Source: a virus
Taxonomy: Duplodnaviria; Caudoviricetes
Virus record (IMG/VR): IMGVR_UViG_3300042366_000091
Location: 1-36,214 of that record
Length of the DNA: 36,214 nt
Reading direction: 5' to 3' (one strand)
Of this stretch, positions 24,324 to 28,785 are shown in pieces; position 1 is the stretch's first letter; each line of letters opens with the position of its first letter. The notes below the pieces were generated by a model. That model was not told the origin of the DNA and searched no databases. It saw only the letters and a list, made by a program, of their open reading frames with translations. Position numbers and translations under genes: made by a program.

Positions 24324-25325
24324 TTACAGTGAGAGGTAGTTATAGCCGCTGACCACAGACATAGCTTTCGGCTTGACGTTGACAAGTTCTGCAATCATCA
24401 GAACAGCGCCGACGTAACCGATTTGCCAGTTGGGGAGGGTGGACTCAAAGCCCGTAAACACGAACGAACCTTGCTCATGGATGTAGAGCGACAGGTAGTT
24501 GGTGTTTAGGAAGTACACCGTACCTTCTGGGCAGTACGGGTCAGGATAGATCGGCACACCGGCAACCATGAGGGCGCGGAATGCAGCGTGAGGGCCGTTG
24601 GTATCACCGTCAAAGCCGGAGCCTGGGGTGATGACGTACTGCTCTTGACCAACAAAGTCTTGAGCCAGCAGGGTCCAAGTACCAAAACCGCAAACACCAA
24701 ACGAAGGCATCTCAGCGCCGTTCTTCACAGTGCCGGAGATGTATTGCAGGATGTTCTGACGGGTCGGGTTGACGGAACCAGCAGAGTACGATTTCGACTG
24801 CCACCAAGTGTAAGCAGAGCGGCTGATGTTGCCGTAGGTTCCAGAAGAACTCACAGCGGCAGGCAGACCGATAAACTGCTGGGTGTTGGTCGTGTTGTTG
24901 TACAGAGCCGTTGCCATTGCATCCATCATGACGTTAGTCGCGTCATTCATACGCGCTTCGATCAGGGGGATGATGGCTGCGTCTTGCTGAACTGCACCTT
25001 CCATACCTAGGAACGGCACGGGAGAAATCATCAGCTTGAGGTCATACTCAGCGTTGTAAGCGCCCTGCTGGACAGACGGTTGAGCGAACGAGCCGCTGTA
25101 GTCTGACCATTGTGCGTTCACGAACTGAGCGCCCTGGACGGGCACAGTCACGGACGACACACCACCGCTAGCTTGCTGACTGTTAGCAATCAGAGCCGCC
25201 ATCAGCGGGGTCGAGTTATAAAGTTGAACAACCAGCTTGGGGATGAACGCACGCCGAGTGACATAAGTCAGTTCGGTAAACTGCGAACTACCTGTTGCCG
25301 GAAGAATACCGCCACCAATAGGCAT
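24324..25325 (-). CDS. Major capsid protein
   Basis: 333 aa after scaffold; strong SD; biased codons; GVPIYPDPYCP.G.VYFLN HK97-type C-terminal motif. Confidence 0.88.
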   Translation of the reverse strand: MPIGGGILPATGSSQFTELTYVTRRAFIPKLVVQLYNSTPLMAALIANSQQASGGVSSVTVPVQGAQFVNAQWSDYSGSFAQPSVQQGAYNAEYDLKLMISPVPFLGMEGAVQQDAAIIPLIEARMNDATNVMMDAMATALYNNTTNTQQFIGLPAAVSSSGTYGNISRSAYTWWQSKSYSAGSVNPTRQNILQYISGTVKNGAEMPSFGVCGFGTWTLLAQDFVGQEQYVITPGSGFDGDTNGPHAAFRALMVAGVPIYPDPYCPEGTVYFLNTNYLSLYIHEQGSFVFTGFESTLPNWQIGYVGAVLMIAELVNVKPKAMSVVSGYNYLSL

Positions 25326-25354
25326 GGTTCTCTCCTAGAAAAAAATACCCTCTT

Positions 25355-25885
25355 TTACAATCCAATAGGCCGCATAGGTCTACGCAGCTCATTGAGTGCT
25401 TTCACCGCTTCTTCACGAGCGGCAACACCGGGGTTCTTCCAGAACTTGTTCAGGTCAAAATTCTTGACGGCTGAAGGCTGATAACCGGAAGGAGTCGGAA
25501 CTGCTGCTTGCTTCATCCACTGGTGATACTGTGCCGCAGTCTCATGGTCGGCGATTTTTTTCTCCAACATGAGTTTCTCCACGGCATCAATTTCGTCTTC
25601 ATTATCGACTAGACCCTTCTTCACCAAAGACTGGCGGCGCTTGTCGAGCATCTCTTGAGCTTCTTTAGCCTGAAGCTTTGCGCGAATGGCATCGTTTTCT
25701 TTACGCATCTGATCCAGAGCAGAACTTGTTTTTTCTTCAATCTCAAGCTCGGGAATCGGAAGGTTAGGATTAACCTTCTTGGTCATACGCAAGAAGTCTT
25801 TACGAGTCTCGGGGTTGTCTGCAAGGCGCTGAGCCAGTGCAGCCAACTCGTCTCGTGCTTCTGAAGAAAGATTTTCTAGTGACAT
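25355..25885 (-). CDS. Capsid scaffolding protein (putative)
   Basis: Charged coiled-coil directly upstream of MCP. Confidence 0.7.
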   Translation of the reverse strand: MSLENLSSEARDELAALAQRLADNPETRKDFLRMTKKVNPNLPIPELEIEEKTSSALDQMRKENDAIRAKLQAKEAQEMLDKRRQSLVKKGLVDNEDEIDAVEKLMLEKKIADHETAAQYHQWMKQAAVPTPSGYQPSAVKNFDLNKFWKNPGVAAREEAVKALNELRRPMRPIGL

Positions 25886-25906
25886 GATGTACCCTCTTAC
25901 TTAAAT

Positions 25907-26089
25907 TTAGATGACTTTTTTGCCGTCACCGGGCTTCTTCACGGCCATGCCGGTCTTGCCAACTTTGTTGGGACCAGTCAGACCGCCAAGCTCGGCGAAG
26001 CGGGGAGTGTTGGTGACAACACCGTTTTGCTGGTTGTTGTCGGTAGGACGGCGCGGGGCGGCAGAGCCACGGGGCTTGAACAAATCCAT
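25907..26089 (-). CDS. Small basic hypothetical protein
   Basis: AGGAG SD; 60 aa. Confidence 0.75.
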   Translation of the reverse strand: MDLFKPRGSAAPRRPTDNNQQNGVVTNTPRFAELGGLTGPNKVGKTGMAVKKPGDGKKVI

Positions 26090-26101
26090 GATGGACTCCT
26101 G

Positions 26102-26575
26102 TTACATGGGGGTGGGTTGCGGCATACCACCGGCAGGAGGCATACCAGGGACAGGTGCTTGTGCTAGAGCTTTCCCTTCAGGCGTTGCACCACCAGCTTG
26201 AGGGAGAGATTGGAGCATCTGAAGAATTTCAGACTGCTGTAGTTCGTTGACTTGACCTTTGCGTGGGCCAAGCAATTCTGTGAGAGAGCGCAGAGCAGTC
26301 ATTGCCTTCTGCGCCTCTGCTGAATCCGATCCTAAAGCCGGAAGCGATTGCTCCAGCAAGTCCATTGCCATGCCGATGTTAATCATGGCCGCTTCCTTGC
26401 TGCCCATCTTGGGTTCAGGAGTGGACATCGGTGCGGCAATAGGAGGAATCTCATTGTCAGCAGGAGACATAGGAGGACCACCCTCTGGCGGCATCGCTGC
26501 GGGGGCAGGCATAGAAGTACCTGCGGAACGACTTCCTCGCATTAACTCCATCAACTTGTCTGCTGGAACACTCAT
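26102..26575 (-). CDS. Pro/Met-rich hypothetical head-module protein
   Basis: AGGAG SD; 157 aa. Confidence 0.8.
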   Translation of the reverse strand: MSVPADKLMELMRGSRSAGTSMPAPAAMPPEGGPPMSPADNEIPPIAAPMSTPEPKMGSKEAAMINIGMAMDLLEQSLPALGSDSAEAQKAMTALRSLTELLGPRKGQVNELQQSEILQMLQSLPQAGGATPEGKALAQAPVPGMPPAGGMPQPTPM

Positions 26576-26592
26576 AACAACTCCTAATAATC

Positions 26593-26641
26593 TGCGAGAG
26601 GCATTTTATGTCAGCCTCTCAAAGACAAATCCTTACGGATT
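26593..26641 (-). promoter_or_regulatory. GNRA hairpin + H-type pseudoknot, unit 2
   Basis: AATCC-GTAA-GGATT; TGTC/GACA crossed with GAGAGGC/GCCTCTC. Confidence 0.5.
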
Positions 26642-26678
26642 ACTTACGGCCTTTACGACCTTTACGACCTTTACGCAT
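26640..26678 (-). CDS. 12-aa peptide MRKGRKGRKGRK
   Basis: AAGGAG SD 6 nt before ATG; 9-bp tandem repeat CGTAAAGGT. Confidence 0.7.
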   Translation of the reverse strand: MRKGRKGRKGRK

Positions 26679-26699
26679 GATGCGCTCCTTGGTTCAGGC

Positions 26700-26750
26700 G
26701 GCCACTTACTTACAGGGGAAGCAGCCATACCCTATTTCCCTTTCGGGGAA
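26700..26750 (-). promoter_or_regulatory. GNRA hairpin + H-type pseudoknot, unit 1
   Basis: CCC-GAAA-GGG; ATAGGG/CCCTGT crossed with GGCTGCTT/AAGTGGCC. Confidence 0.55.
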
Positions 26751-26795
26751 TTAACGGCGGGTCTTGCGACCACGCTTCATTTTGCGTCCGTACAT
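26751..26795 (-). CDS. 14-aa peptide MYGRKMKRGRKTRR
   Basis: AAGGAG SD 5 nt before ATG. Confidence 0.7.
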   Translation of the reverse strand: MYGRKMKRGRKTRR

Positions 26796-26804
26796 GATTA
26801 CTCC

Positions 26805-26972
26805 TTAACGGCGGTTGTAGTCCCGTTGACTACGACCGGTGTAGGTTTTAAACCCAGTTTGGCGGCTTGTCAAGCTAGGACTCGCTTCTCCGCGAGACAG
26901 TTGTTTTGTGTCCACCCTTGGCTGGTCAGCTTTGGGTTGGGTCATGGAACGGGTTCCGGGGTCTGTAGCCAT
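26805..26972 (-). CDS. 55-aa protein (MATDPGTRSMTQPKADQPRV...RSQRDYNRR); not in ORF track
   Basis: AGGAG SD; TGATG coupling. Confidence 0.7.
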   Translation of the reverse strand: MATDPGTRSMTQPKADQPRVDTKQLSRGEASPSLTSRQTGFKTYTGRSQRDYNRR

Positions 26973-27154
26973 CAGTCTCTCCTAGAAGACCGCTTGTCTT
27001 TTTTTGACTCTGAACGAGTTTTTTTGATATAGCGGTCATAAGAAGCCTGAGCATCTTCTGCTCTTTTTATGTTCTCTCTACTTGGAGACGCTTTTGCTCT
27101 TTGTTTCGCCGCATCAGCCTCCGACCACAGTTTAATTGACTCTTCGCTCATCAT
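26972..27154 (-). CDS. Small charged hypothetical protein
   Basis: Coupled to portal stop; basic tail. Confidence 0.65.
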   Translation of the reverse strand: MMSEESIKLWSEADAAKQRAKASPSRENIKRAEDAQASYDRYIKKTRSESKKDKRSSRRD

Positions 27155-28785
27155 CCCACCTGTTTAAGTTGAGGTTTGCCTTCTGGCTTTTGTTGCATCG
27201 CCTGCTGAGCTTGTTGAGCTTCTTGCTTTTCTTGCATCTTTTTCAGACGGTCTTTAAGCATCTGCTTCATAGGCGGATCAACCATGTCGAGCAAGGATTC
27301 CTTGTCGATAACCTGGGACTTGAAGAGATTGAACGCCAGAGTCCTCAAGTCTTCCATGAAGATCGGACTGTTAGAGTGGGCATCAACCTTGACTACATAG
27401 TCTTTGGTGAACTGTTCGGCAATAAACGGGTTGCCTTGTTCGTCTATGTAGTGGGTGTCATCGTATGCCTGCATACAGCGCAGGTATAGCGTTGCCATCT
27501 TCTCTAGTGAATCTTCAATGACGAGGGCACGTTTCTTGGCACGGCTGGAGCCAAGACGGGCAAGCTGAGAAGCATGACCAGATGAGCGCACGCCTGACTC
27601 ACCACGACCCTGCAAAACACTGACAATGCCACTGGCTTCTTCAAACATCGCATCTATTTCGTTAATTTCACGGAATAGATCGGGAGGAATCTGCGGAGCT
27701 AGCTTCTCAACCTTTGCGTTTGGCATGTCTGTGGCTAGCAGGCCACCAGCACGGTTAAGAGCAAAGTTTTTCTCGTCCAAAATTCCCGTAAAGCCTACCA
27801 AAGCGGTAGGTGGAGAGACTTGTTTGCTTAGCAAGTCTAGGATTTCAGCCATACGCTTGTTGCGTAGCTGCTGTAGGAAGATAAGACGCTGGACTTCTGA
27901 CAAGCCCCAGAAGTAGTCATACAGAGGGTTGGGGCAAATCTGCACGAATGGCAGTTCACCCTTGAGGAAAAGGCTTTCACCTTCCCTGTCATAGATGATG
28001 ACATCTGGATCGGCCTTGGTAACGACTTGGTAGTCTTGAATGTCGTCATTCCAGAGCCAAAGCTCAGTCATTTCGATGGTGTCTTCAGCAACTTCAGCCT
28101 TGTAGCGGTTCATGCCGCCCAAATCAAGGTTCACATTGCCGTACATCGTGGGGTTTGACTGCGACAAGATGATGCGCTCAATCCCGTTTGCAATGTCCGT
28201 GCGCTCGTGAGGCATGGACGACACCCGTCTAACTAACTCTTCCCGTCGAGGATGGCTCCACAACTGGCTGTAAAGCTCAGACTTTGTGATGTAGTAGGTG
28301 TGGACAAAGGCTTCTTGGTTGTCCAAACCGGGGATGTCTTCCCGCAAAACACCTATGCAAGCAGGCTCAACATAGTGTGGATGGGGCGTTTTCCCCTTCA
28401 TGACCAGCTTGATGAACCCGCTGTTGTAGCAAAGTGACCAAGTTGTAGCCAGTGAAAACTTCTGATCTGCGTTTGTGTCTAGCCAGCGGTCATTGAGAGC
28501 GCGTGTAAGAGCCGGAACTTTTGTTTGTTCTTGCTCTTTGACAGCAGCACCCATGTTGATGCTAAACCGCGTAGTCTCTGCTGAGTAGAGAAAGCTGGTT
28601 AGCTGGTCAATGTGGGGGTAAATCTTGTTGTACAAAGCCGGTGACTCGTCTGGGCCATTGCCAAACAAGTACCAGCTTCGCAGCGAACCGTAGTCAACCT
28701 TGCGTGTTTCCTTCGAAACCAAGCACTTCTGAATGAGGTCGAGGTAAAACTCCTCGCGCTCTACAGAATCAGTTGGAATTCTCAT
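27151..28785 (-). CDS. Portal protein
   Basis: 544 aa between TerL and scaffold/MCP; NKIYPHIDQL, LPFVQI.P...WGLSEV..L, SGI..VLQG motifs. Confidence 0.82.
   Translation of the reverse strand: MRIPTDSVEREEFYLDLIQKCLVSKETRKVDYGSLRSWYLFGNGPDESPALYNKIYPHIDQLTSFLYSAETTRFSINMGAAVKEQEQTKVPALTRALNDRWLDTNADQKFSLATTWSLCYNSGFIKLVMKGKTPHPHYVEPACIGVLREDIPGLDNQEAFVHTYYITKSELYSQLWSHPRREELVRRVSSMPHERTDIANGIERIILSQSNPTMYGNVNLDLGGMNRYKAEVAEDTIEMTELWLWNDDIQDYQVVTKADPDVIIYDREGESLFLKGELPFVQICPNPLYDYFWGLSEVQRLIFLQQLRNKRMAEILDLLSKQVSPPTALVGFTGILDEKNFALNRAGGLLATDMPNAKVEKLAPQIPPDLFREINEIDAMFEEASGIVSVLQGRGESGVRSSGHASQLARLGSSRAKKRALVIEDSLEKMATLYLRCMQAYDDTHYIDEQGNPFIAEQFTKDYVVKVDAHSNSPIFMEDLRTLAFNLFKSQVIDKESLLDMVDPPMKQMLKDRLKKMQEKQEAQQAQQAMQQKPEGKPQLKQVG

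Follow-up and report, generated by a model that had tools for sequence, protein, structure and literature searches.

Translation of phage T4 gene 32 is repressed by the gene's product, gp32, by way of a leader pseudoknot, and the gene 32 operator of phages T4 and T2 and the Escherichia coli rpsO/S15 system resemble the locus considered here in combining an H-type leader pseudoknot with a nucleic-acid-binding product and possible feedback (PMC3014915). The present locus, termed the cassette, lies in a 36.2-kb tailed-phage record (the window, meaning the whole stretch of DNA analyzed) that is complete (CheckV 100%) and encodes a terminase, a portal, a capsid, and a DNA-ejection protein, and here, too, a predicted, covarying H-type pseudoknot, PK1, stands upstream of an initiation region. 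The gene 32 product, however, is a folded SSB, whereas here it is a polycation of 10–15 aa made in the late head module. The gene 32 pseudoknot is placed 67 nt upstream and is followed, before the ribosome binding site, by an unstructured tract of A+U-rich repeats (PMC3014915), whereas PK1 has a short mixed tail and lies about 21 nt from the AUG (0 nt in a distant clade). A second pseudoknot, PK2, closes the message in the cassette, for which self-repression is a proposal.

Tiny basic peptides, protein J of the Microviridae and VP8 of the gokushoviruses, have been proposed to neutralize the viral genome. As in the cassette, a tiny basic peptide gene lies next to the capsid gene in the head module, but protein J serves a ssDNA microvirus and has capsid protein F as its partner, whereas the window, 36 kb long, comes from a tailed dsDNA phage that has a motor and encodes a terminase, a portal, and an ejection protein. 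The cassette peptides have 10–15 aa and no hydrophobic capsid-binding tail, their packaging role is putative, and, in contrast to protein J, they are encoded in one to three tandem copies that have a separate promoter-like site and an RNA frame. In its proposed working the cassette combines an operator of the gene 32 type with a packaging peptide of the J type, and it is a member of neither family.

Compact leader pseudoknots are also a property of the preQ1, SAM-II, and guanidine-III riboswitches, which the distant clade recalls in that stem S2 of its leader is formed with the Shine-Dalgarno (SD) region; the cassette, however, has no Rfam match, and PK1 of the near clade leaves the SD free. 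With RNase E obstacles and intercistronic stabilizing hairpins the cassette shares 12–13 coaxial pairs just outside the ribosome binding site (PMC9943677), although its elements are natural phage elements that frame micro-genes on both sides, and protection by them is proposed.

The cassette is real, conserved, and not in Rfam, and it joins known kinds of element in an unusual combination. Scanning window positions 25300–27400 against Rfam 15 gave no match near the gathering score, and a literature search, mostly at abstract level, returned no description of it. Fremin and Kyrpides (2023) predicted 8495 structured RNAs from IMG/VR (PMC10690425); no match to the motif was found in three of the six supplements listed there, and PK1 or PK2 may be among the unnamed candidates of that study. 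Exact patterns alone recover roughly 430–500 stored IMG/VR stretches with PK1/PK2-type elements, which represent two RNA pseudoknot families with strong covariation and without an Rfam model.

Basic micro-genes between portal and capsid

The first-pass annotation described two micro-ORFs and two H-type pseudoknots on the minus strand of the window, and all four are present there (Table 1), between p55, which follows the portal gene, and p157, which opens the block leading to the capsid gene and has 1308 unnamed relatives. A charged 60-aa ORF between portal and p55 (window 26972–27154, minus strand) occurs, among 80 portal loci, in the window and identical contigs only, and is, as judged from sequence, a recent insertion.

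Table 1. Features of the cassette and its surroundings in the window.
Feature	Position	Strand	Remark
Portal protein	27151..28785	-	phrog_1216; context
p55, conserved 55-aa basic ORF after portal	26805..26972	-	without family match
Promoter-like site inside p55 (TTGACA, 17 nt, TAAAAC)	26845..26873	-	predicted start of peptide message
Predicted 5'-end hairpin within p55, just past putative start	26817..26833	-	folding z in relatives
Micro-gene 1, 14-aa Arg/Lys peptide MYGRKMKRGRKTRR	26751..26795	-	SD at 26806-26801
Hairpin 1, after stop 1	26736..26750	-	loop varies among relatives
PK1, H-type pseudoknot, 5' leader of micro-gene 2	26700..26735	-	ends 21 nt before AUG
Micro-gene 2, 12-aa Arg/Lys peptide MRKGRKGRKGRK	26640..26678	-	SD at 26690-26685
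Hairpin 2, overlaps stop 2	26628..26641	-	position in window
PK2, H-type pseudoknot closing unit	26596..26627	-	predicted fold and covariation
SD of p157	26585-26581	-	p157 ATG at 26575
p157, 157-aa Pro/Met-rich gene, conserved neighbor	26102..26575	-	without family match
Major capsid protein	24324..25325	-	phrog_9953; context

Related loci were gathered by portal protein, capsid protein, PK1 pattern, peptide pattern, and p157 start, and the set used for statistics comprised 186 distinct portal-to-p157 regions, of which 128 were selected by protein and 58 by the peptide pattern, and none on PK1. Matches in MAGs (two beta-proteobacterial, one Terrimicrobiaceae) are possibly mis-binned and were left out of host assignment.

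Only three SD-led ORFs of 7–45 aa with at least 35% R/K exist in the whole 36-kb window, and micro-genes 1 and 2 are two of them. The 250 distinct micro-ORFs collected from relatives encode 9–29 aa, mostly 12–14, composed of 32% R and 30% K (R+K 62%) with less than 1% L/I/V/F/W, and the peptides carry a median charge of +7 (range +6 to +12). An SD core lies 5–8 nt from the ATG in 221 of them, the stop codon is TAA in 226, TGA in 21, and TAG in 3, and 866 of 984 Arg codons are CGU/CGC, which are optimal codons; pairwise codon differences are synonymous in 3247 cases vs. nonsynonymous in 2180. Size, R+K share, SD spacing, stop use, Arg codons, and the synonymous excess together indicate that the micro-ORFs are genes, as the first-pass annotation had taken them to be, and signs of coding selection extend over the 250 distinct ORFs. 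The common ending of the 55-aa and 14-aa ORFs, to which it had also drawn attention, reduces to coding for "RR-stop" and was seen again in 3 of 149 relatives. Two GenBank genomes from this phage family leave the peptides unannotated and have hypothetical ORFs called on the opposite strand; the cassette exposes genes that annotation has missed. A membrane-disrupting lysis peptide was considered and ruled out, given the <1% hydrophobic residues and an endolysin 19 kb away. One lineage (L101, L126, L136) has a longer second peptide of 24 aa, in which Met/Ala/Pro repeats precede the basic tail.

One to three peptides are encoded at 119 of the 128 portal-selected loci and none at 9, while 60 regions selected independently by p157 hold two peptides in 49 cases, three in 2, one in 3, and none in 6. 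Peptide copy number (0–3) changes 22 times on a 178-tip portal tree and each tandem copy has its own SD, which together speak for product dosage, not for sensing in cis by the leader. On the portal tree the nine loci without a cassette group in a single clade, and two 100%-complete genomes of this clade carry no cassette elsewhere; because one whole clade has lost it, the cassette is not essential for this capsid type. The position in the head module is kept across 27–100% portal identity, even in phages with a reversed portal gene. Four cultured distant phages with a related capsid (Mx8, BUCT555, ppBjS10J-1, and Mwe-JY13) have no such micro-ORF. The product annotated right after the presumed portal of Stenotrophomonas phage BUCT555 is a basic protein of 52 aa (L477:3942-4100), which is possibly analogous to the cassette peptides.

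The stop codon of each micro-gene in the window is accompanied by a small hairpin, and the first-pass annotation had made GNRA hairpins part of its repeated unit and likened peptide and hairpin to lambda N and boxB. In lambda N, of about 100 aa, the ARM that recognizes the conserved GNRA-fold pentaloop of boxB is joined to a domain binding RNA polymerase and NusA, and antitermination involves a boxA/nut site and the read-through of terminators; what the lambda N/boxB and HK022 Nun systems share with the cassette is an Arg-rich peptide near GNRA-like hairpins. If the peptides bound these hairpins, they might control the head genes by antitermination or as attenuator leaders, and it speaks for this that no loop class is commoner than GNRA (75 of 254 distinct segments following a stop), that about 23 further loops are five-base CGNAA, and that in some distant loci a U-tailed hairpin lies between the peptide and a next gene with no visible promoter. 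Other loops are frequent, however, and 44 of the 254 segments have no stable hairpin, so that the GNRA hairpin is no required part of the unit and the N/boxB model fails. The peptides, mostly 12–14 aa, have no activation domain, the near clade offers no terminator to override, PK2 is without a U-tract, the downstream genes have a promoter-like site of their own in 142 of 173 loci, and the tandem copies speak for dosage; we therefore consider antitermination or attenuation very improbable.

Leader and closing pseudoknots

PK1 is built of an S1 of 4–6 bp, a 3-nt L1, and an 8-bp S2 with tandem U-G/G-U, with a junction pair after a bulged U, and PK2 of a 4-bp S1, a 3-nt L1, a 7-bp S2, a 1-nt L2, and an A-rich L3. 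The H-type descriptor score of the window-identical spacer was equalled by 1 of 300 dinucleotide shuffles for PK1 and by 3 of 300 for PK2. In the PK1 alignment of 58 sequences 94% is paired, and in 20 distinct PK2 sequences of equal geometry all 220 cells pair (100%), compared with 38–51% in slid controls. The covariation on which the pseudoknots had been made to depend was found: two-sided changes, counted without regard to relatedness in alignments (A4–A6) picked for equal geometry, occur at 6 of 13 pairs in PK1 and 9 of 11 in PK2, the latter including 3 of the 4 pairs of S1, the stem singled out beforehand as the weak one. PK2 displays 27 different S1 cores over 122 loci, and the 4-bp S1 forms with its own 5' strand in 109 of the 122 vs. 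23% in cross-type swaps. The number of distinct complementary stems is, on sequence comparison, far beyond the inheritance of one event.

The two pseudoknots had been described as sharing topology and placement within tandem units of peptide, GNRA hairpin, pseudoknot, and SD. Both are indeed H-type, and there are two sets of peptide and pseudoknot, but PK1 is a 5' leader and PK2 the end of the unit, and the C read as L2 of PK1 is no plain loop, since it pairs with L3 (C-G in 25, U-A in 21, and G-C in 3 of 58 sequences). This pair spans the bulged pyrimidine and is Watson-Crick in 56 of 60 cases against a shuffle mean of 26. In the middle of PK1 S2 there is either a tandem U-G/G-U or a mismatch, U-C/U-U or C-A. 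A covariance model of PK1 (S1 only) does not match PK2.

PK1 ends 17–24 nt before the peptide AUG in 96 of 103 parsed rows, a spacing that may simply be the shortest to leave initiation free. Among 119 metagenome matches to the PK1 pattern, 108 have an R/K micro-ORF 14–25 nt downstream, and the remaining 11, all from outside this phage family, have no such ORF. PK1 is present without an upstream peptide in L039, L150, and L387 and is the first element after the promoter in L387 and L150, for which reasons it is regarded as the leader of the downstream peptide. The covariance model finds PK1 in the intermediate relatives L150, L362, L327, and L326 and no distant leader; run against 151 cellular genomes of one order, it returned the phage contig itself and three weak matches, two of which were inspected and are not followed by an SD-led micro-ORF. 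An SD-sequestering switch was not detected in the near clade, where loop:SD pairing (−6.4 own vs. −6.0 swapped) is not above controls and a tail hairpin gives −2.3 own vs. −2.1 swapped.

PK2 sits 0–51 nt past the last peptide stop and is followed in 109 of 122 loci by a TTGAC box within 13 nt of its end, which places it outside the p157 message from that promoter in most relatives. A role for PK2 in tuning the head genes in cis, as first suggested, is consequently unlikely in most relatives. Intrinsic terminators, GC stems with a U-tract behind them, were not found on the minus strand of 25300–27400, and PK2 has no U-tract, being followed by A/C and then the next -35 box. In a number of relatives (L020, L012, L072, and their kin), though not in the window, an extra small hairpin lies between hairpin 2 and PK2; its 4–5 nt loop nearly always ends in GA, and it recurs in many lineages.

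Pseudoknots behind stop codons bring to mind recoding, in which read-through or frameshifting would fuse the basic peptide to a downstream product, and in the window an H-type pseudoknot does lie 12–15 nt past each stop. Recoding pseudoknots keep a fixed spacer of 5–9 nt after a leaky stop or slippery site. The variable distance from stop to PK2 is unlike such a spacer, the prevailing stop is TAA (226/250), and PK1 persists where no peptide precedes it, so that stimulation of recoding can be given almost no credence.

Among the 119 peptide-bearing loci, the PK1 motif is found in 102 and a PK2-like fold in 110, the latter by a descriptor that also picks up loci falsely (the L351 group and L397, on inspection by eye). 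One or the other pseudoknot is missing from some of the loci with peptides (the L351 group, L376, and L397, by eye). In three-peptide loci without PK1 (L379, L444, L448, L453–L455, L211) a G-rich motif is conserved in the first spacer and a C-rich one in the second; long-range pairing of these spacers around the ORF was rejected, as 1 of 20 pairs reached ≤0.05 of shuffles. An HDV-like ribozyme was ruled out by eye, there being no room for P3/P1.1.

The leader in distant relatives

In distant phages, whose portals are 27–32% (~29%) identical and whose portal gene is often reversed, the Pro/Met-rich gene is likewise preceded by an R/K micro-gene, and a TTGACA promoter-like site, leader, and peptide are found together in 33 of 40 loci. 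The leader of these phages is a predicted hairpin with a loop that pairs to the stretch from SD to AUG and with a 3-nt L1 as in PK1, and on position and topology its homology to PK1 is plausible. A plain GC hairpin, in some loci with a U-tract, occupies the place of PK2 (by eye). An Rfam scan of 10 distant loci returned no match. In 8 leaders hand-picked from 25, 95% of cells pair and two-sided changes occur at all five S1 and two S2 pairs, those of S2 being G-C to A-U swaps. Over 24 automatically parsed leaders the own pairing averages −6.5 vs. −5.3 kcal/mol when swapped, a result reached in 21 of 20,000 permutations with kinship ignored and several automatic picks wrong, and only 9 of the 24 beat loop shuffles at p ≤ 0.05.

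The leader pseudoknot might accordingly be mainly a sensor, an operator or riboswitch responding to polycations, polyamines, or Mg2+ that switches peptide synthesis, with message stability secondary. The pairing of distant-clade S2 with the SD-to-AUG stretch in the hand-picked leaders suggests this, as does PK1 in keeping non-canonical pairs and a bulged U beyond the needs of an obstacle, and phage riboswitches have been reported, though rarely (PMC9004378). The near clade, however, offers no alternative structure, S2 of PK1 has been replaced wholesale with pairing kept in L462, L328, and L062, unlike a ligand pocket, Rfam riboswitches give no match, and most of the parsed distant leaders, several of them wrongly picked, do not exceed their shuffles. 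A primarily sensory leader is thus a tentative and rather doubtful reading of the cassette.

The distant leader is probably conditional, because it buries its own SD (L398–L436, upstream of the reversed portal gene; for example, L414:4653-4705, minus strand), and it is a candidate for a translational riboswitch or operator family of its own. At the distant loci L399, L408, and L410 the peptide bears a short acidic or hydrophobic N-terminal extension, which could be a leader or cleavage site.

The predicted message and its proposed role

A promoter-like site inside p55 precedes the first peptide in 116 of 173 cassette loci and is present in none of the 9 cassette-less loci, which are one clade, while portal-gene control slices contain one in 122 of 708 cases (17%). 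Cassette and p55-internal site are both absent from that clade. A strict scan demanding the last T of the -10 box does not find the p55-internal site, since near-clade -10 boxes (TAAAAC, TAAAAA, TACAAA) end without it; near-clade promoters are for this reason pattern matches only, whereas distant-clade boxes mostly retain the T. The form of the near-clade boxes suggests activator-dependent late promoters. Past the putative start, the 5' segment has a mean folding z of −2.35, with 40 of 72 sequences below −2, vs. 10–21 of 70–72 in three upstream comparison windows (mononucleotide shuffles, related sequences). The second promoter-like site, after PK2 and before p157, is absent from the window, which is one of a minority that lost it. 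Where present, that site and an inverted repeat around its -10 box frequently overlap (many near-clade loci, such as L003:5990-6040); the motif occurs in 68 of 182 loci, is absent from the window, and is likely an operator for a late regulator. The predicted message would be about 240 nt long (window about 26838–26596) and would consist, in order, of a hairpin, peptide 1, a hairpin, PK1, peptide 2, a hairpin, and PK2.

Among the options raised by the first-pass annotation, a stabilized mini-mRNA for the mass production of DNA-condensing peptides fits this anatomy best. We give about even credit to the full reading that the cassette is a self-contained, nuclease-resistant mini-message mass-producing DNA-neutralizing peptides for head filling. 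Transcription would begin at the promoter-like site inside p55 and reach a high level, and PK2 would block 3'-to-5' exonucleases, as RNA structure is known to do. The 5' hairpin and PK1 would slow 5'-end-dependent scanning by RNase E, which H-type pseudoknots of 11–15 coaxial pairs impede in E. coli (PMC9943677), and the protected peptide segment would outlive the rest of the late message. The leader pseudoknot may also set peptide translation or feed back on it, most simply if excess polycation stabilized it, by the logic of T4 gene 32. The peptides, for which position, composition, and dosage suggest a role as DNA counter-ions, would screen the charge of the DNA inside the head or close to it, in the manner of microvirus protein J or of polyamines. 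Our confidence falls from high expression from a separate promoter, through message protection and DNA counter-ions, to leader feedback.

The capsid protein of a T=7 head is present in 415 copies. Neutralizing a tenth of 72,000 phosphates with peptides of charge +7 takes about a thousand copies, above that count, and such a need would explain the separate promoter, tandem copies, and armor. Against the mini-message stand the loss of the cassette in one clade, loci without a pseudoknot, the lack of an SD switch and the pattern-matched promoters of the near clade, and its absence from all four cultured distant phages. If the reading holds, tailed dsDNA phages supply themselves with protamine-like counter-ions, in regulated amounts exceeding those of the capsid protein, with a bearing on how DNA charge is handled in phage heads. 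PK2 could be put to use in bacteria as a compact protector of 3' ends.

The peptides could instead act on the host, binding ribosomes or host nucleic acids or being ejected with the DNA as a shield, with the RNA frame ensuring output. Pure polycations bind RNA as well as DNA, the peptides presumably resemble the tiny basic ribosomal proteins eL41 or bS22 in composition, and the cassette is dispensable in one clade, but its strict head-module position at every level of portal identity, even with the portal reversed, makes action on the host unlikely.

An extension of the mini-message, a polycation homeostat, is speculative and would more probably prove wrong than right: the leader pseudoknot would sense free polycation, either the 10–15 aa product itself or host polyamines, and shut off peptide translation, while the 5' hairpin and 3' pseudoknot armored the message, so that a home-made polyamine substitute would be dosed to the amount of DNA to be packed. 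Such a leader, if real, would represent a cis-regulatory RNA of a new class, and the gene would rank among the smallest autoregulated ones known. Pseudoknots of 35 nt and peptides of 12 aa are small enough for synthesis, probing, and E. coli reporters.

Genome length gives a weak hint of a trend with peptide number. Among 29 near-clade contigs of 33–40 kb, the five with 0–1 peptides measure 37.1–38.4 kb and the 24 with 2–3 peptides 33.7–37.4 kb, in a post hoc comparison covering three lineages. A held-out set added one further long cassette-less contig, from the same clade, and also short one-peptide contigs of 34.0 and 33.5 kb. The cassette-less clade (L060, L071, L722) has the longest near-clade genomes, at 37.9–38.4 kb.
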